This document shows, piece after piece, positions 5,482 to 14,820 of a stretch of DNA of 64,000 nucleotides; positions within the stretch are counted from its first letter, which is position 1; each line of letters starts with the position of its first letter. This DNA is from Candidatus Levyibacteriota bacterium. Lineage in GTDB: Bacteria > Patescibacteriota > Microgenomatia > Levybacterales > UBA12049. The translations under genes were made by a program, and so were the position numbers. Under the pieces are notes generated by a model. The model saw only the letters and a program-made list of their open reading frames with translations, was not told where the DNA came from and did no database searches. The stretch covers positions 113,698-177,697 of the forward strand of contig JBPOIT010000005.1 of assembly GCA_052034235.1 (NCBI GenBank). The letters are read 5' to 3'.

Positions 5482-6651
5482 TTGCTAATGAGTACATCCA
5501 AAAGGACATTTTCGTTCGAACAACTATTGGAGGCACTAAAACGCGAGGTTTATTTTCCAAATTACACAATTAAAGGTTATATCTTCAGATATACCTCCGC
5601 GCTGCTTATTACCTCATCCCTCTTTCTTCTCAGCGTGCTCTTTAAATCTGAATCCCTGTCATCACTACTCCTCGTGCTCGCAATCGTTTCAACGGCTTGG
5701 ATCGGAGGACTTGGTTCTGCACTTTTTTCTGCTTTGTTATCCATTGGCTTTCTGTATGTTTTGTTCTTTTTTCCTATAAATCCATCAATAACCTTTTTTC
5801 TTGAATCAATAATTTTACTCATGACAGCAACGATTGCCGGTATGAGTATTTTCTATTCCAAAAAAATTGACCAGCTAGCAAGATTTCATCTAAAAGAAAA
5901 AGAATTTGAAAAAACTGTTGCCGCAATGCAGGAAGAAAATCTTAAACTTAAAACAGAAATCAGATCTCGTGATGAATTTCTCTCAATTGCATCACACGAA
6001 TTAAAAACTCCTTTGACAGCAACACTTCTCAAACTGCAAATTGCACTGCATAATATCCGTAATACATCACTTGCTAATTTTTCAGTCCAAAACTTAATGG
6101 ACATGCTTTTGAGCTCTGAACAACAAACACAAAGGCTTTCTAAAATGATTGGTGATTTATTAAACGTTTCTCTCATGAGAACAGGCCGGATGGAACTTGA
6201 TATTGAAAAAGCAGACCTCACTATCATTACAAAAGATGTGATAGAAGGATTGATTGAAAAAGCGACACGCGAAGATATCGATATTCGGCTCAATTCAAAT
6301 GGTGAAGTGAGCGGCAAATTTGACAAAATGCGCATCGAACAAGTACTTATCAATCTTTTAACAAACGCTATGAAATACGGCGGTAAAAAGCCAATTGATG
6401 TGAAAGTTGAACAAGAAAATAATATCGGAAAAGTAAGCGTGACTGATTATGGAATTGGTATACCAGCCAAACAAAAAGAAAAAATATTTGAACTTTTTGA
6501 ACGCGGCGTGCACGACGGACAAAGAAATGGTTTAGGAGTTGGATTATATATAACGAACCAAATAGTGAAAGCCCACAAAGGCAAATTGCATTTGGACAGC
6601 AAAGAAGGAAAAGGCTCTACGTTTTGTTTGGAACTGCCTCTAAACTCATAA
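5482..6651 (+). CDS. sensor histidine kinase (membrane, HisKA + HATPase_c)
   Basis: N-terminal TM segments. H-box SIASHELKTPLTA. N/G boxes: NLLTNAMKYGG, VTDYGIGIPAKQKEKIFELFERG, GLGVGLYITNQIV. No response regulator adjacent, so it looks like an orphan kinase. Confidence 0.85.
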   Translation: MLMSTSKRTFSFEQLLEALKREVYFPNYTIKGYIFRYTSALLITSSLFLLSVLFKSESLSSLLLVLAIVSTAWIGGLGSALFSALLSIGFLYVLFFFPINPSITFFLESIILLMTATIAGMSIFYSKKIDQLARFHLKEKEFEKTVAAMQEENLKLKTEIRSRDEFLSIASHELKTPLTATLLKLQIALHNIRNTSLANFSVQNLMDMLLSSEQQTQRLSKMIGDLLNVSLMRTGRMELDIEKADLTIITKDVIEGLIEKATREDIDIRLNSNGEVSGKFDKMRIEQVLINLLTNAMKYGGKKPIDVKVEQENNIGKVSVTDYGIGIPAKQKEKIFELFERGVHDGQRNGLGVGLYITNQIVKAHKGKLHLDSKEGKGSTFCLELPLNS

Positions 6652-6670
6652 AATATCGTATAATAAAACT

Positions 6671-7060
6671 ATGAAACCACTATACACATTAAACGGAATT
6701 GTTCAGCATGGGAATAAGCGCGGTAAGGAGATGGGATTCCCAACAATTAATCTACAAACAGAACTCAATAGTACTGATGGACTTTATCTATCACAAACGC
6801 TGGTGCAAAATACCTGGTATAACTCACTCACTTTTATCGGTGTTGCTAAAACGTTTAATGCAAAAGATTACCTGGCTGAAACTTTTATTTTAGATTTCAA
6901 TAAAGACATATATGGTGAATCAGTTACTGTTACGATATTGAAAAAGCTCAGAGGCAATGTGAAATTCGCATCGGTGCCAGAACTTGTTGAGCAAATGAAA
7001 CTTGACGAAAAAGCTGCACGGGAATTTTTCTTATCTTTTTCTCATAAAACACAGGTATAA
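6671..7060 (+). CDS. riboflavin kinase (monofunctional flavokinase domain)
   Basis: GNKRGKEMGFPTINL (GxGRG...PTAN-type flavokinase motif), GLYLS, and an E..LDF motif. 129 aa, so no FAD synthetase domain. Confidence 0.75.
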   Translation: MKPLYTLNGIVQHGNKRGKEMGFPTINLQTELNSTDGLYLSQTLVQNTWYNSLTFIGVAKTFNAKDYLAETFILDFNKDIYGESVTVTILKKLRGNVKFASVPELVEQMKLDEKAAREFFLSFSHKTQV

Positions 7061-7069
7061 TGCTTCAGT

Positions 7070-7741
7070 ATGTTTCCACTTTACGATACTATACGACCAT
7101 CAAAATTTCCCTTTCTTAACTGGCTGATTGTTATCATAACAGTTTATGGTTTTTATCTTCAATTAACGACCACTGACCCGGAAGCGTTTATCACCCAATT
7201 TGCACTCATTCCCTCACTTGTTGATTTTTCAAACCCTATAACGCTTGTTCCATTTATAACCGCCATTTTCCTTCACGGCGGACTTTTGCATATCATTTCA
7301 AACATGTGGTTTCTCATTGTATTCGGAGACAATGTCAACGATTCACTCGGCTACATAGGGTTTATCCTTCTTTATTTCGCAGCGGGAATCGTTGGTAATT
7401 TTGTACAATTTATGTTTACTCCAGAATCAAGCATACCTATGCTCGGAGCATCTGGTGCTGTTGCGGGCATTTTGGGATGTTATTATGTGCTTTTTCCGCA
7501 CGCAAAAATTAAGACCCTCGTTTTTATATTCTTTTTCGTTACACTCATAGAGATCAGCGCTCCGTTGATGCTTGGTTATTGGTTTGTCCTCCAAATCTTT
7601 TCAGGAGCCGCATCAATTCCTATGCTCGGTGCAGAAGAAGGAGGCGTAGCATTTTTTGCCCATATTGCTGGTTTTGTGGTTGGATTAGTCTTTGGATATT
7701 TATACAAAAATAAAGCTCGCACTGGTGATTATTATGAATGA
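7070..7741 (+). CDS. rhomboid family intramembrane serine protease
   Basis: Six or more TM helices. Catalytic GASGAVAG (GxSG). Downstream AHIAGFVVGLV (His in the last TM helix). Confidence 0.85.
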   Translation: MFPLYDTIRPSKFPFLNWLIVIITVYGFYLQLTTTDPEAFITQFALIPSLVDFSNPITLVPFITAIFLHGGLLHIISNMWFLIVFGDNVNDSLGYIGFILLYFAAGIVGNFVQFMFTPESSIPMLGASGAVAGILGCYYVLFPHAKIKTLVFIFFFVTLIEISAPLMLGYWFVLQIFSGAASIPMLGAEEGGVAFFAHIAGFVVGLVFGYLYKNKARTGDYYE

Positions 7742-7949
7742 GAACCTAGGCAAAACAATAATTGTGATGGGAGTAATACTCATCATAGTCGGTGCATTAT
7801 TTATGCTTCTTGGCAAAGGCGGACTTCCCAAATTGCCTGGAGATATTTATATTAAAAAAGATAATTTTGTTTTCTTTTTTCCCTGGGTATCCTCTATTGT
7901 TATTAGCATCGTTCTCTCCATAGTATTCTATCTATTTTTCCGCAAATAA
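7734..7949 (+). CDS. DUF2905-family small membrane protein
   Basis: Start adjusted to MNENLGK inside ORF 7692..7949. Pattern IIVMGVILIIVGALFMLLGKGGLPKLPGDIYIKKDNFVFFFPWVSSIVISIVLSIVFYL is typical of DUF2905 (LPGD...F.FP). Confidence 0.6.
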   Translation: MNENLGKTIIVMGVILIIVGALFMLLGKGGLPKLPGDIYIKKDNFVFFFPWVSSIVISIVLSIVFYLFFRK

Positions 7950-7999
7950 TTCTGCCTAGTTCTCACATCTCTCTTACAATGGATGTGTATACTATTTGC

Positions 8000-8209
8000 A
8001 TGAACAAGAAGCTCGTCAGGCCACGAAAAGGAAGAATTATCGCAGGTGTTGCAAGAGGTATTTCCAATTATTTCGGCATTTCTGTTGTGCTTGTCAGAAT
8101 TATCTGGGTTCTCCTCTTCCTCCCCGGCGGAGCACCCGGCCTCATCCCTTACATCATCTTCTGGATTTTCATGCCATCAGAAGATAAAAATATAGAATCA
8201 GCTAAATAG
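8000..8209 (+). CDS. PspC-domain membrane protein
   Basis: Start adjusted to MNKKLVRPRKGR. The GRIIAGVARGISNYFGISVVLVRIIWVLL motif matches PspC-domain proteins (R..IAGVC.GLA.YFGID...VR). Confidence 0.7.
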   Translation: MNKKLVRPRKGRIIAGVARGISNYFGISVVLVRIIWVLLFLPGGAPGLIPYIIFWIFMPSEDKNIESAK

Positions 8210-8324
8210 CACATCAAAATCCCCTATAGTTTAGTACTTTAAAAAATTGATCAAAATTGCTATACTTAACACTTCCTAATTGAAAAAAGTTGTTATACTT
8301 GATACGCTTTTCATTAGTAAACAT

Positions 8325-8397
8325 GGTGGTTGTAGCTCAGTGGTAGAGCGTCAGTTTGTGGTACTGAAAGTCGCGGGTCCGATCCCCGTCAGCCACC
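8325..8397 (+). tRNA. tRNA-His (anticodon GTG) with genome-encoded G-1
   Basis: Cloverleaf folded by hand. G-1 plus acceptor GTGGTTG / CAGCCAC. D-arm GCTC..GAGC. Anticodon stem TCAGT / ACTGA with loop TTGTGGT (GTG at 8358..8360). T-arm GCGGG-TCCGATC-CCCGT. Discriminator C73 pairs with the extra 5' G, as is typical for tRNA-His. Confidence 0.85.
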
Positions 8398-8407
8398 CAT
8401 AGAAATA

Positions 8408-8437
8408 AAAAAGCTCCGAAAGGGGCTTTTTTTGTGG
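8408..8437. terminator. bidirectional intrinsic terminator (A-tract, GCTCC-GAAA-GGGGC hairpin, T-tract)
   Basis: AAAAAAGCTCCGAAAGGGGCTTTTTTT lies between the 3' end of tRNA-His (+) and the 3' end of the Fic gene (-). Confidence 0.6.
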
Positions 8438-8489
8438 GACGAAAAAGAATGAAAGGATATGTCATAAAACACGGAGCATAGCAATTATC

Positions 8490-9125
8490 TTATTCTTGAG
8501 ATAACTCTAAGGTTTCAGAGAGCGCTTGGCCTAATAATCGCTCCAAATGTGAATAATCCCCTTCATCAGCTTCTTGCATGGCTGTTAGATATTCATTTCT
8601 ATCTTCCTCTTTTTCTACTCGGAGTTCAATTGGCGGTAAATTAAGCTTTAGGAGAATAAAGATTGTGAGCATTCTTGCAGTTCGGCCATTGTAGTCTTGA
8701 AATGGATGGATAAATACATAGCGATGCTGAAACCATGCAAGCAACTTTACTATCTCGAGAATGAACTCATCATCATCTTTTTTAGGTAAACTTTTTAATC
8801 TCTCTTCTAAGTCATTAGATAAGTTCGTAATTAACACTGACACTTCGAAGTATGGAGGAGCTTCTTTATCGGAAAAAGTTACTTGAATTTTTCTATATTT
8901 TCCAGCCCATTGCGGAAAGATCCAACCAAACGACACATCATGAAGTATACAAATAAATTCAGGTGTAATACTCTCTTTATTCTCTGTAACTATTTTATAG
9001 ATGTATTCCAACCCTTTTTTCGTTCCTTCAATTTCAAATTGGAGTAGCTTTTCCCGCGGAATAATACCAAATGCTGTATCTTTATATGAAGTGGCACCAA
9101 TAGGCTTTGTTGATGACTGTTTCAT
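8490..9125 (-). CDS. Fic/Doc family protein (FicT-like toxin, adenylyl-/phospho-transferase fold)
   Basis: Canonical Fic motif HPFQDYNGRTARM (HxFx(D/E)GNGRxxR). 211 aa. Confidence 0.8.
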   Translation of the reverse strand: MKQSSTKPIGATSYKDTAFGIIPREKLLQFEIEGTKKGLEYIYKIVTENKESITPEFICILHDVSFGWIFPQWAGKYRKIQVTFSDKEAPPYFEVSVLITNLSNDLEERLKSLPKKDDDEFILEIVKLLAWFQHRYVFIHPFQDYNGRTARMLTIFILLKLNLPPIELRVEKEEDRNEYLTAMQEADEGDYSHLERLLGQALSETLELSQE

Positions 9126-9128
9126 TCA

Positions 9129-9305
9129 TTACTTAAAGAGAGCAGAAACTTTTTTACGAGTTACACTTTCACCCTCTAATTTTGTGGTTCGGAAAATAAT
9201 TTCCGGCATAAAAGCACGGAAAAATTCCAAGACACCTTTTTTATTCTTTGTCGTACGGTATTTTTTATATGATTTTACTAGTCTTGTTTGCTCTCGTTTG
9301 CTCAT
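9129..9305 (-). CDS. small FicA/VbhA-like antitoxin candidate (58 aa, below ORF-track cutoff)
   Basis: Hand translation gives MSKREQTRLVKSYKKYRTTKNKKGVLEFFRAFMPEIIFRTTKLEGESVTRKKVSALFK. Its TAA stop is followed by TGA and then the Fic ATG, an operon-like junction. It contains TTKLEG, which matches the [S/T]xxxE[G/N] inhibitory-helix motif of Fic antitoxins. Confidence 0.5.
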   Translation of the reverse strand: MSKREQTRLVKSYKKYRTTKNKKGVLEFFRAFMPEIIFRTTKLEGESVTRKKVSALFK

Positions 9306-9505
9306 AAGTTCAGTATAGTACTATATGCAAATTATAACAAGGTTTTGTATGAAATTGTAAAAATATCTTTTTCTTGTGAACTTAATAAACTAAAATAGGT
9401 TCGAACGTCGTTTGGTAATCTACCCCAAAAAATAAATTAAGCTCCGAAAGGGGGGGTTATAGATTTTATTTGAGGGGCAGATAGTTTGGAGTCGTATGTC
9501 GTTTT

Positions 9506-10528
9506 TTAGCCTCGTAGGATGAGAAAGGTAAGATAGATACAATAGCCTGAGAACATCAGTATTCCTTTGGTGCGGGTAATGCAGTGTTTTTTGTAGACAA
9601 AAAGAGAAAGAAAGAGTACCAGTGTCGCAGCAAATAAGACAAGAATATCAACGAGCTCTTTGCCGCTCATCGGGATATCTTTAATAAGAGCTGTCACACC
9701 CAATATAAAAAAGATATTAAAAATATTCGAACCAACAATATTACCAACTGCCAATTCAACTTGCTTTTTAACAGCAGCGGCAATACTCGTAACAAGTTCT
9801 GGCAGACTTGTCCCAATCGCAACAACAGTCAATCCAATAAAAGTATCACTTACACCCAAACTCCTCGCGATAATAACTGCGTTATCTACAAATAATTTAC
9901 TTCCTACAACCAAACCGGCAACGCCTGCAATAATTAAAATCAACGTAATGTTCGTTGATCGTTTTTTTATTTCAGGCTCTTCCGAAGTGCTTTTTGAGAT
10001 ACCAAACGTATAATAAAGAAAAATGACAAAAAATAATAATAAAATGAGACCATTACTGAACGATAGTGTTCCGATTGTTTCTGGAGAAGTTAATGAGATA
10101 GATGAATAATGATGATTGTCCAGAATAAGCTGCATACCCAGGATAGTCATAACAACCGCCCCGAGAAAGGACATAGGAATTTCTTTCAGTACAGTGTTTT
10201 TCTGGACGGTGACAGGTGTTATCATCGCAGTTATGCCAAGTATCAAAAGAATATTGGCAATATTTGAACCTACGATGTTACCAAAAGCAACGCCTGTGTT
10301 CCCTGATAAAGCACTGGTGACGGACACAACGAGTTCAGGGGATGAGGTACCAAAAGCAACAACGGTTAAACCAATGACAATAGGGGAAATTTTAAATCGT
10401 AGAGCTAAAGAAGATGAACCGTCTACAAATAAGTTTGCTGATTTAATGAGTAGAAAAAGTCCGGCTATCAATAAAATTATAGCTAAAACCACAATCATAT
10501 TATACGATATCATTCGGGGTGAAGACAA
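9506..10528 (-). CDS. Ca2+/cation antiporter (CaCA family, YrbG-like Na+/Ca2+ exchanger)
   Basis: Two alpha-repeats with GTSSPELVVS / GTSLPELVTS and GNIVGSNI motifs. About 10 TM helices. Confidence 0.85.
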   Translation of the reverse strand: MSSPRMISYNMIVVLAIILLIAGLFLLIKSANLFVDGSSSLALRFKISPIVIGLTVVAFGTSSPELVVSVTSALSGNTGVAFGNIVGSNIANILLILGITAMITPVTVQKNTVLKEIPMSFLGAVVMTILGMQLILDNHHYSSISLTSPETIGTLSFSNGLILLLFFVIFLYYTFGISKSTSEEPEIKKRSTNITLILIIAGVAGLVVGSKLFVDNAVIIARSLGVSDTFIGLTVVAIGTSLPELVTSIAAAVKKQVELAVGNIVGSNIFNIFFILGVTALIKDIPMSGKELVDILVLFAATLVLFLSLFVYKKHCITRTKGILMFSGYCIYLTFLILRG

Positions 10529-11798: not shown

Positions 11799-11841
11799 TA
11801 CTGCAATCTCATTAGACCCATATCTAAATATCTGCTAAAAT

Positions 11842-12466: not shown

Positions 12467-13024
12467 ATGGCAAGAGCAGAGCGCGAACGTATACAACCAA
12501 ACTATGAGCCTACTGAACAAGATCAGGCAGATATATATCGCGGACTTATCGTTCATGCAAGACGGAGAGGAGGCTTATTAGCACCAGATGGAAGATTCGT
12601 TGCAGGAGATGTTCTTGTAGATACTTCAAATGGAACAAGAATAGAATTTTCCTCACCTAATCTAGGCCTAGACCAGCATGTTGTTTTTGACACTAGCGAT
12701 CCAGCGCAAGATCAACCTACTCCTGGTCAGCTTGGGTTACTGGACGTAGCCCCACAAGACTTGGAAGCTTATAGGAGTGCAGCAATCGCCATTCCTCAAC
12801 CAAAGTATCCAAGCAGAGGTTCATTCAGCCAATTATCACCTGACCTGCAACCGTTTAGGGCTCAACAACTTGAAAGGGTAGCAGAAATGTCAGCGCATGC
12901 ATATCCAGGAGGAGGTTCTTTTGTGGCTTTATTAGGACATATGATGCTTGAAACGGGTTTAACTGCTTTGACAAACGCTTGGGGAAATGTCAAAAAGCAT
13001 GTAGCAGACGCAATTAAATCGTAA
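12467..13024 (+). CDS. hypothetical protein (Arg/Gly/Pro/Gln-rich, composition atypical for this genome)
   Basis: 185-aa ORF with no recognisable motif. Codon and amino-acid usage is noticeably more GC-rich than neighbouring genes. Confidence 0.5.
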   Translation: MARAERERIQPNYEPTEQDQADIYRGLIVHARRRGGLLAPDGRFVAGDVLVDTSNGTRIEFSSPNLGLDQHVVFDTSDPAQDQPTPGQLGLLDVAPQDLEAYRSAAIAIPQPKYPSRGSFSQLSPDLQPFRAQQLERVAEMSAHAYPGGGSFVALLGHMMLETGLTALTNAWGNVKKHVADAIKS

Positions 13025-13044
13025 AAGAATCTTAATAAAACCTC

Positions 13045-13797
13045 TTGACAAATAAACGCCCGAACACTACACTACAGGCCATGTCAGAAAGAAGACCCAT
13101 AATATATTCCGACAATGAGTTAGAAAAAATACTTTACAAGTCTTCTGAGGCTGCAAAAGCAAACGCGGGTGTTCTTTGGTGGGAAGGTGATCATGAGGAT
13201 GCAACGAAGAACAATAAGATGATACCTTTTTTTAATAGAAACCTAGACCGATCAAGAGGTGATGTCTTACTTGTGGAAGGTTATCCTTACGGAGTCCCAA
13301 TTGAGGGAGTCTTTGAACCACAAGTCGACGCTTTCGGATTTGAAATAAATCCTGTCCTGCTTGTCTTGAATAAAGCATTAGATGAATTGGCCCAAGACGC
13401 TGCACGAAGAGTAGTAAAATTAGAAACGAGTGATGAGGAATATGCTGATTTCCATGCAAGGTTTAGGGACTCATATGTTAATCGAACAAAATATTCTCTT
13501 GTTCCTGCTATGAATAATGTTTGGGAATCGTATCCTGATGCACGTAATGGAGTAGTATTTGGCTTAGCTCATGTTTTTTCTGACAACTCGATGACAGAGT
13601 TTTTGCCGCGAGAAGAACAGATAATTGTCAGAGAGCATAAGCTGGTATCCGGAGTGGAATCTTTCCTTGCCCCAACCATGATTGATCATGGTGGATTTGT
13701 GATACTTGGCGATAGGTTTGATTTTGGTCCATTGAAACACGCTATTCCTCAACCTCCACCCCCACCACGCCCTGTTCGTAGAAGATGGGTTTTATAA
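13045..13797 (+). CDS. hypothetical protein with proline-rich C-terminal tail
   Basis: The ORF track starts at a TTG inside a TTGACA...TACACT promoter-like element. The likely true start is ATG 13081 (MSERRPIIY...). Ends PQPPPPPRPVRRRWVL. No known domain recognised. Confidence 0.5.
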   Translation: MTNKRPNTTLQAMSERRPIIYSDNELEKILYKSSEAAKANAGVLWWEGDHEDATKNNKMIPFFNRNLDRSRGDVLLVEGYPYGVPIEGVFEPQVDAFGFEINPVLLVLNKALDELAQDAARRVVKLETSDEEYADFHARFRDSYVNRTKYSLVPAMNNVWESYPDARNGVVFGLAHVFSDNSMTEFLPREEQIIVREHKLVSGVESFLAPTMIDHGGFVILGDRFDFGPLKHAIPQPPPPPRPVRRRWVL

Positions 13798-14263: not shown

Positions 14264-14503
14264 ATGATAACCACAATTATATCGATAGGTAATTCCCGAG
14301 GTATTCGTATACCCAAAGTATTGCTTGAAGAAAGTGGACTTGAAAATGAAGTTGAATTAGAAGTAAAAAAAGGTGAAATAAGAATTATTCAGGCAAAACC
14401 AAAAACTATAAAAGGTAATGATGCGCTACTGTTGTCAGAGAAATCGCTCGAAGCTGATTGGAGTAAACCAGAAGAGGATGAAGCATGGAAAAGTTTACAA
14501 TAG
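14264..14503 (+). CDS. mazE: MazE/AbrB-family antitoxin
   Basis: N-terminal IGNSRGIRIPKVLLEESGL (SpoVT/AbrB swapped-hairpin). Acidic C-terminus. Overlaps the downstream toxin gene by 19 nt. Confidence 0.75.
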   Translation: MITTIISIGNSRGIRIPKVLLEESGLENEVELEVKKGEIRIIQAKPKTIKGNDALLLSEKSLEADWSKPEEDEAWKSLQ

Positions 14504-14820
14504 GTAGCATCGTACTAGTAGCATTTCCCTTTTCCAACCTAAAAGGAAAAAAACTCCGCCCTGCTCTTATTTTGGCACATGTTGAGTTTGATAATCTCAT
14601 TCTCTGTCAAATCACCTCAAAACCATATTCCAGTAAAACTGCAATCAAAATTTTACCCGAAGATTTCGAAGAAAAGAGCTTGCCTGTTGTGAGCTATGTA
14701 AGACCTGACAAACTATTTACTGCTGATTCGTCAATTATTGAACGAATCGTTGGAAGACTAGGAGGCAAAGCTCGAAAAACAATTTTACATAAAGTCAGCA
14801 CATTGTTTACTGCCATATAA
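14485..14820 (+). CDS. mazF: MazF/PemK-family mRNA interferase toxin
   Basis: GSIVLVAFPFSNLKGKKLRPALIL matches the MazF/PemK N-terminal signature (GD(I/V)V.V.FPFSD....K.RPALV(L/I)). Confidence 0.75.
   Translation: MEKFTIGSIVLVAFPFSNLKGKKLRPALILAHVEFDNLILCQITSKPYSSKTAIKILPEDFEEKSLPVVSYVRPDKLFTADSSIIERIVGRLGGKARKTILHKVSTLFTAI

Follow-up and report, generated by a model that had tools for sequence, protein, structure and literature searches.

We analyzed a stretch of 64,000 nucleotides from a Candidatus Levyibacteriota bacterium (GenBank assembly GCA_052034235.1, contig JBPOIT010000005.1, positions 113,698 to 177,697 of the forward strand), referred to here as the window, in which the gene for a Fic-domain protein and a small upstream open reading frame (ORF) of 58 amino acids (aa) lie between direct repeats 3' of tRNA-His. 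The two genes probably form a ∼1-kb accessory cassette, a class I-type module that was inserted by site-specific recombination at a hotspot 3' of the tRNA gene. The reading of this cassette as a tRNA-linked islet, flanked by attachment (att)-like repeats and lacking an integrase, a known kind of element, is supported by a junction whose content varies among strains and by copies of the tRNA end in relatives. An earlier reading of the window, made from the sequence alone (the sequence-only reading), had also proposed an integrated, integrase-less islet; the interpretation stands, but an empty site that would complete it was not found, as discussed below.

Direct repeats flank the Fic genes

The proposed insertion target is a tRNA-His gene with anticodon GTG (8326–8398, plus strand; ARAGORN), which matches Rfam RF00005 with 62.6 bits at 8326–8397. 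Direct reading of the sequence places G-1 at position 8325; the last base of the tRNA body is C8397 and the next two are CA, which means that the full CCA is not encoded. Immediately 3' of the gene (tRNA end 8397/8398) begins the Fic cassette, 1026 bp at 8402–9427, whose limits are taken as the first base that differs from the allele in contig L020, described below, and the end of a distal boundary site.

The ∼30-bp imperfect direct repeats that the sequence-only reading had described around the Fic islet are real. Ungapped, 8396–8425 matches 9424–9453 at 24 of 30 positions (repeat finder), and a local alignment with one gap lengthens the repeat to 8388–8425 and 9415–9453, with a score of 43 against 15.2 ± 2.8 (maximum 30) for 1000 shuffled sequences. 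Within it, an exact 15-mer, AAGCTCCGAAAGGGG, is present in both copies (8411–8425 and 9439–9453) as had been claimed. For this genome, copy number was assessed in the 64-kb window, where the 15-mer has no third copy and gives three matches against 0.12 expected when up to two mismatches are allowed; it was not found in ∼100 other loci outside this species. With two copies of the 15-mer and one of the 33-nt boundary site in 64 kb, the many dispersed copies expected of a repetitive extragenic palindrome, a miniature inverted-repeat transposable element or a generic terminator are not seen, and the window holds no more tRNA-end copies beyond chance. Both repeats are identical across all 17–21 conspecific contigs, save for one change in the length of a G-run in L023. 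One detail of the earlier description needs correction: the repeat had been said to start within the last 4 nt of the tRNA, and its overlap with the tRNA body is 2–3 nt when ungapped and ∼10 nt when gapped (GTCAGCCACCCA versus GTAATCTACCCCA), a short and degenerate match (8/12).

The proximal copy (8388–8425, plus strand) comprises the tRNA 3' end, an A-rich trailer and a hairpin (both arms and the loop), and would have an attL-like role. It contributes to an intrinsic terminator (8407–8433) that lies between the convergent tRNA-His and Fic genes and consists of an A-tract, the hairpin GCTCC-GAAA-GGGGC and a run of seven T residues. This copy folds with −20.9 kcal/mol on the plus strand (z = −4.6) and −10.8 kcal/mol on the minus strand (z = −1.8), where a C·A mismatch makes the terminator weaker. 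The distal copy (9415–9453, plus strand; repeat finder and gapped alignment), which would be attR-like, retains the hairpin relic GCTCC-GAAA-GGGGG at 9441–9454 without a T-tract, and folds no better than shuffled sequences on either strand (z = −1.4 and −1.3), indicating a poor terminator. These folds agree with the earlier description of the first copy as a proper intrinsic terminator and of the second as a relic rather than a second terminator.

Other cargo occupies the same junction in related contigs

Contig L020 (ENA ERZ3602260), which is conspecific with the window, is identical to it at 1400 of 1402 positions over 7000–8401. The identity stops at 8401, two bases past ...CCCA, after which L020 continues with CGGACTTATACGGTTTGCTACGG... 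and carries, in place of the Fic gene, a convergent gene for an esterase, an α/β-hydrolase of the hormone-sensitive-lipase type.

More distant relatives show similar hotspot behavior at this locus. L109, located by searching JGI metagenomes for exact matches to the 3' half of the tRNA, has a tRNA-His identical to that of the window and a DUF1905 neighbor that is 77% identical. Between these two genes lies a 785-bp islet with one convergent NYN-domain gene (HEC-09/NYN in PADLOC), flanked by the repeat CAGCCACCCATA[A/C]GGTTTGCTA[C/T]GGTTT (26/28), which takes in 10 nt of the tRNA. In L025 the tRNA 3' end recurs twice: an exact 17-mer follows a 128-nt non-coding unit, and a further copy, CCCCAGAAAAAATT, comes after a single ORF of 232 aa that is convergent. 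DUF1905 stands directly 3' of tRNA-His in the P0169-bearing species, where one or two extra tRNA-end copies, with a terminator-like hairpin apiece, separate the two genes; a non-coding unit of exactly 125 bp is found in L113 (5791–5915) and in most strains of this species and is absent in L121. Both L025 and L113 have a hairpin and TTTTTTGTGG at the position of the window's terminator, and in all three lineages with trailers of the terminator type the repeated block, like that of the window, extends from the tRNA end across the hairpin. The content of the interval from tRNA-His to DUF1905 thus varies in every lineage examined, with units delimited by tRNA-end copies.

The 125-bp unit is made up of a hairpin, a pseudo tRNA-His 3' end, a terminator-like hairpin and TTGGCAAGG, and the 128-nt unit that follows tRNA-His in L025 is homologous to it.

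The distal end carries a boundary site shared with a cassette array

The repeat proves to be longer than first described: its distal copy continues to the left, to ∼9395, as a site that is shared with cassette boundaries in contig L123. This distal boundary site, ATAGGTTCGAACGTCGTTTGGTAATCTACCCCA (9395–9427, plus strand; nhmmer profile and match to L123 site R4), contains a T-loop-like TTCGAAC and ends in ...CTACCCCA. L123 is a 3582-bp Logan contig that was reached via P0241, an 89% identical homologue of the L020 esterase, and it encodes HicA/HicB, an esterase, GrpB, a DUF3800 protein and a truncated HAD-hydrolase fragment. Each of its boundaries has a ∼33-nt element (four sites), all in one orientation, with a T-loop-like TTCGAAC and the end ...ACCC(C)A. 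The pattern GTCGTNNGGTANTCTACCCCA from the window's distal site has an exact match in L123 R4, where no matches would be expected even at three mismatches. A profile made from the five sites (nhmmer), run against the window and 12 selected loci, recovers these five and nothing else. Past the site, the window and L123 R4 have no similarity on either side. The 3' flank of the esterase gene is homologous in L020 and L123, and adjoins the true tRNA-His in the former and the pseudo-site R3 in the latter.

Rfam gives no tRNA-like match at the distal site. The idea that the boundary sites are structured, attC-like elements was rejected, as they share no fold.

Two further features of these contigs were observed. 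The first and last 29 nt of L123 (1–29 and 3554–3582) are identical, with the overlap beginning at CCCCA in site R1; the molecule could be circular, or the overlap could come from a tandem repeat or a loop in the assembly. In addition, TACGG/TTTGCTACGG repeats with ∼10-nt spacing occur in the trailer after ...CCCA in L020 (1447–1480), L109 (3700–3725 and 2922–2949) and L123 (∼1745–1790). Because they are common to three unrelated contigs, these repeats may bind a protein at the insertion site.

The Fic protein and its putative antitoxin

The Fic-domain protein (211 aa; 8490–9125, minus strand; Pfam PF02661, E = 3.7e-12) is encoded convergently with the tRNA. Its active-site motif, HPFQDYNGRTAR at residues 140–151, has Tyr where the consensus has the first Gly and does not match the canonical HxFx(D/E)GNGRxxR, the AMPylation consensus from which deviations have been linked to other activities (PMC3667792). 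With D-Y-N-G-R in place of D/E-G-N-G-R, the chemistry may not be AMPylation. The closest family representatives are 36–47% identical, stand-alone proteins of ∼200–212 aa that all have HPFxD[YF]NGR, and the protein appears, from sequence comparison, to be part of a distinct D[YF]NGR subfamily of uncertain chemistry. Its best solved relatives are FICD (E = 4e-15), and in PADLOC it matches the defense candidate PDC-S04 (E = 1.2e-26).

In class I Fic systems a separate antitoxin supplies the inhibitory helix, with the motif (S/T)xxxE(G/N) (PMC3667792). This motif was not found in the Fic protein itself. The 58-aa ORF (9129–9305, minus strand), a putative antitoxin, has TTKLEG at residues 40–45, which fits it. 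The cargo would thus most likely work as a class I-type module: judging from the motifs, the small protein would provide the inhibitory helix, with its glutamate E44 blocking the nucleotide site of the Fic protein, and Fic protein set free would modify a cellular target. The arrangement resembles the class I toxin–antitoxin modules VbhT/VbhA and EcFicT/FicA (PMC3667792, PMC5033356) in pairing a FIC protein of ∼200 aa that lacks its own inhibitory helix with a ∼60-aa (S/T)xxxE(G/N) ORF immediately upstream. It differs from them in its HPFQDYNGRTAR motif, in having class II FICD rather than FicT as the nearest solved relatives and in a small ORF without a homologue.

A relationship of the 58-aa ORF to the inhibitory helix of FICD was considered and set aside, as a PDB search with the ORF alone returned nothing and, for an artificial fusion, the alignment stops before the ORF. 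Because the small ORF has no detectable homologue and the fusion–FICD alignment misses it, the antitoxin call is one made only at the level of the motif. Of the earlier toxin–antitoxin assignment, the FIC domain is borne out, but the pairing is a motif-level call and the active-site motif of the putative toxin is non-canonical.

The 58-aa ORF and the Fic gene are in frame with each other and are parted by two stop codons, TAA TGA, followed by ATG (9125–9131). The shared frame could be due to chance (with a probability of 1 in 3), could be the trace of a once-fused gene that was split or could allow readthrough to be regulated here. The two-gene operon is preceded by a promoter-like site, TTGTTA-17-TATACT (9312–9340, minus strand; a consensus match only), which is overlapped by a palindrome (inverted repeat) at 9304–9335.

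Proposed origin of the cassette

In the proposed mechanism, the 3' region of tRNA-His would have recombined with a site on the incoming DNA. Insertion would have duplicated an att-like block that runs from the tRNA 3' end over the A-rich trailer to the terminator hairpin. Of its two copies, the proximal one would still act as the terminator of tRNA-His, and as a weaker one for Fic. The distal copy would be a relic, its left part corresponding to the ∼33-nt boundary site of the family that parts other single-gene cassettes. An empty site would read tRNA-His ...CAGCCACCCA joined to AAAAATAAATTAAGCTCCGAAAGGGGGGGTTATAG, and the junction of a circular cassette would read ...GGTAATCTACCCCA joined to TAGAAATAAAAAAGCTCC. 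Because the cassette does not encode a recombinase, any movement would have to depend on an enzyme encoded elsewhere. In keeping with insertion of an accessory cassette, the cargo seen at these sites is of a typical accessory or defense-like type (Fic matching PDC-S04, the NYN gene matching HEC-09, and the HicAB of L123).

A number of observations weigh against insertion of a mobile class I module. Outside its core the repeat is only 80% identical, and it barely overlaps the tRNA. The base composition of the islet is not distinctive, with a GC fraction of 0.32–0.365 that differs little from the 0.36–0.415 of the flanks. The ORF list and Pfam agree with the earlier statement that the repeats enclose only the Fic gene and the small upstream ORF, and there is accordingly no recombinase within the islet; nor was one detected in the 64-kb window, within the limits of a motif regex and of Pfam searches of ten candidate ORFs. 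The boundary-site profile does not match the real tRNA-His, and the five boundary sites have no common fold, four of them folding no better than shuffled sequences and L123 R4 giving z = −3.2. The array is known from L123, a single 3.6-kb contig, and L020 is short (2068 bp) and of low coverage (2.9), with its far junction outside the known sequence of the contig. The 58-aa ORF has no homologue in Pfam, NCBIfam, PADLOC or the PDB, and its three-position motif would be expected by chance in ∼5% of such ORFs by our own estimate. Finally, none of the contigs reached has an empty site, at which tRNA-His would adjoin the antiporter side directly; the sequence-only reading had proposed looking for one in relatives, and the conspecific L020 has other cargo instead.

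The contigs reached from the antiporter side are all Fic-bearing. Exact look-ups of the Fic, rhomboid and antiporter proteins returned Fic-bearing conspecific contigs only, with L020 as the sole exception, and a look-up of the PspC protein returned one contig. Synteny via the antiporter was also tried and abandoned: homologues with 79–83% identity sit in unrelated contexts, with no empty site. The contigs of the two closest DUF1905 relatives end before reaching the tRNA. No attP-like or cassette sequences were found in phages and plasmids, and IntI was not detected in the window by the same limited tests, nor was it called in L113–L122 or L123.

An improbable alternative is that a larger element with an integrase (an island, prophage or plasmid) once integrated at tRNA-His and decayed until the Fic pair alone was left, in which case the att repeats would be genuine and the 1-kb unit would never have been mobile. 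The lack of a recombinase is as this alternative would have it, toxin–antitoxin pairs often outlast the rest of a degrading element, and the truncated HAD-hydrolase fragment in L123 indicates that decay does occur in such arrays. However, there are at least seven units (in the window, L109 and L025, and four in L123), all of 0.7–1.1 kb and with one gene or gene pair each, and this regularity of size and content makes independent decay hard to credit. The occurrence of the same esterase unit at two positions, bounded each time by the same ...CCCA, and the restriction of the similarity between the window and L123 R4 to the site itself also argue against a remnant.

It is very doubtful that strains instead swapped the segment 3' of tRNA-His by way of homologous recombination in its conserved flanks, with the repeats as older leftovers or local duplications unrelated to the arrival of Fic. 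The flanks are indeed highly conserved (the 1400/1402 identity upstream, and 77–100% for DUF1905), and the differing content of the interval in every lineage examined is as expected from exchange. Such exchange would nevertheless leave unexplained that each unit is bounded by a tRNA-end copy or an ACCC(C)A site in the same orientation, and that the exact 125-bp unit is gained or lost between tRNA-end copies.

It is barely credible that the two copies are merely similar intrinsic terminators, one serving tRNA-His and Fic and the other the minus-strand antiporter, that arose by convergence or chance around an ordinary resident operon: both copies have a hairpin with a GNRA loop, and on the minus strand a T-rich run (TTAATTTATTTTTT) follows copy 2 downstream of the antiporter stop at 9506, but copy 2 folds no better than shuffled sequences and its U·G pair turns into a C·A mismatch on that strand, the 15-mer is unique to the two places, the similarity reaches past the hairpin into the trailer and the tRNA end, and the junction holds different cargo in a conspecific strain.

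Gene neighborhood of tRNA-His

On the 5' side of tRNA-His are genes for a rhomboid protease, a DUF2905 protein and a PspC-domain protein. On the 3' side, the minus strand carries the Fic gene, the 58-aa ORF and an antiporter of the Na/Ca-exchanger family (9506–10528), beyond which a glycosyltransferase and a DUF1905/OmdA protein are encoded on the plus strand. Homologues of the flanking proteins carry the source names Levybacteria, Roizmanbacteria or Patescibacteria, which points to a Levybacteria-like bacterium of the Candidate Phyla Radiation. A candidate third tRNA-end relic before DUF1905 (11799–11841, ACCCATA) was rejected, as L110, a 90% relative, has TCAATA there; the conserved linkage of the glycosyltransferase and DUF1905 genes also counts it out.

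The T-loop of tRNA-His (8374–8380) reads TCCGATC, with C in place of the near-universal U55. The tRNA-His of L109 is identical to that of the window in this respect, and the canonical TTCGAGT and TTCAAAT are found in L025 and L113, respectively.

Other features of note lie nearby. A second putative toxin–antitoxin pair is located ∼5 kb downstream (14264–14820, plus strand) and consists of a 79-aa ORF followed by a toxin of the PemK/MazF family, a label that comes from precomputed Pfam PF02452 matches on the equivalent genes in L001/L021. Another variable segment follows DUF1905, where the window has ORFs of 185 and 250 aa (12467–13797, plus strand); L110, which is 90% identical, lacks both and has DUF1801 directly after DUF1905. 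A HisKA/HATPase sensor kinase (5482–6651, plus strand) is a single 389-aa ORF in the window and is called as 206 + 70, 317 + 70 or 276 aa in conspecific contigs; these differences in length may reflect frameshifts, variation in start sites or assembly errors.

Comparison with known systems and implications

The cassette shares its main features with the tRNA-linked islands described by Williams in 2002, and with the integrase-less cis-mobilizable elements (CIMEs) from the work of Pavlovic and Bellanger on Streptococcus thermophilus, which are said to derive from integrase-mediated insertion at tRNA 3' ends. As in those elements, it lies immediately 3' of a tRNA gene, is flanked by direct repeats of which one is at the tRNA end, and carries accessory cargo that varies among strains; tandem copies of the tRNA 3' end are found in relatives. 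Unlike them, it has no integrase in or near the unit and amounts to a ∼1-kb single gene or gene pair, and its repeat overlaps the tRNA body by a few bases and continues through the tRNA terminator. Repeated fragments of tRNA 3' ends reportedly border the hypervariable islands of Prochlorococcus and are scattered through them, as Coleman et al. are said to have found in 2006. There, too, repeated partial tRNA 3' ends mark successive insertions and close strains differ in content; those islands, however, are tens of kilobases long and attributed to phage integration, whereas the units described here are kilobase-sized, or 125 bp and non-coding, and belong to a host of the Candidate Phyla Radiation (CPR).

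Integron arrays offer a further comparison, as do CALINs, which are clusters of attC sites lacking an integrase. In common with these, the present units are ∼1-kb single-gene cassettes, often with toxin–antitoxin or defense functions, that have a short conserved site in one orientation and no recombinase inside. Unlike attC, however, the sites lack an imperfect palindrome or attC fold and show no GTTRRRY core on inspection, the cassettes occur in both orientations with their own promoters, and the anchor is a tRNA rather than attI. Because of the lack of attC-like structure and of IntI, the mixed orientations and the presence of promoters within the cassettes, we conclude that the locus is not an integron. 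A literature search for integrons or tRNA islands in CPR bacteria found nothing relevant.

A broader interpretation, which we put forward tentatively and regard as unlikely on present evidence, is that tRNA-His in Levybacteria-like CPR bacteria anchors an integron-like platform of ∼1-kb single-gene cassettes with ∼33-nt ...ACCC(C)A sites and a recombinase acting in trans. Its base is one short contig and several small islets. The cargo of such a platform would include the Fic pair, the NYN nuclease, the esterase, HicAB, GrpB and DUF3800. A cassette site would recombine with the 3' end of tRNA-His or with another such site, which would yield both arrays, as in L123, and strain-specific first cassettes, with Fic in the window and the esterase in L020.

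The mobile elements of CPR/Patescibacteria are poorly charted. With a precisely delimited hotspot from tRNA-His to DUF1905, alternative cargo at the level of strains and candidate recombination sites, the flow of toxin and defense genes in these reduced genomes becomes testable. If it is true that the cassettes move as units by means of a trans-acting recombinase, the system would be a tRNA-anchored analogue of integrons.

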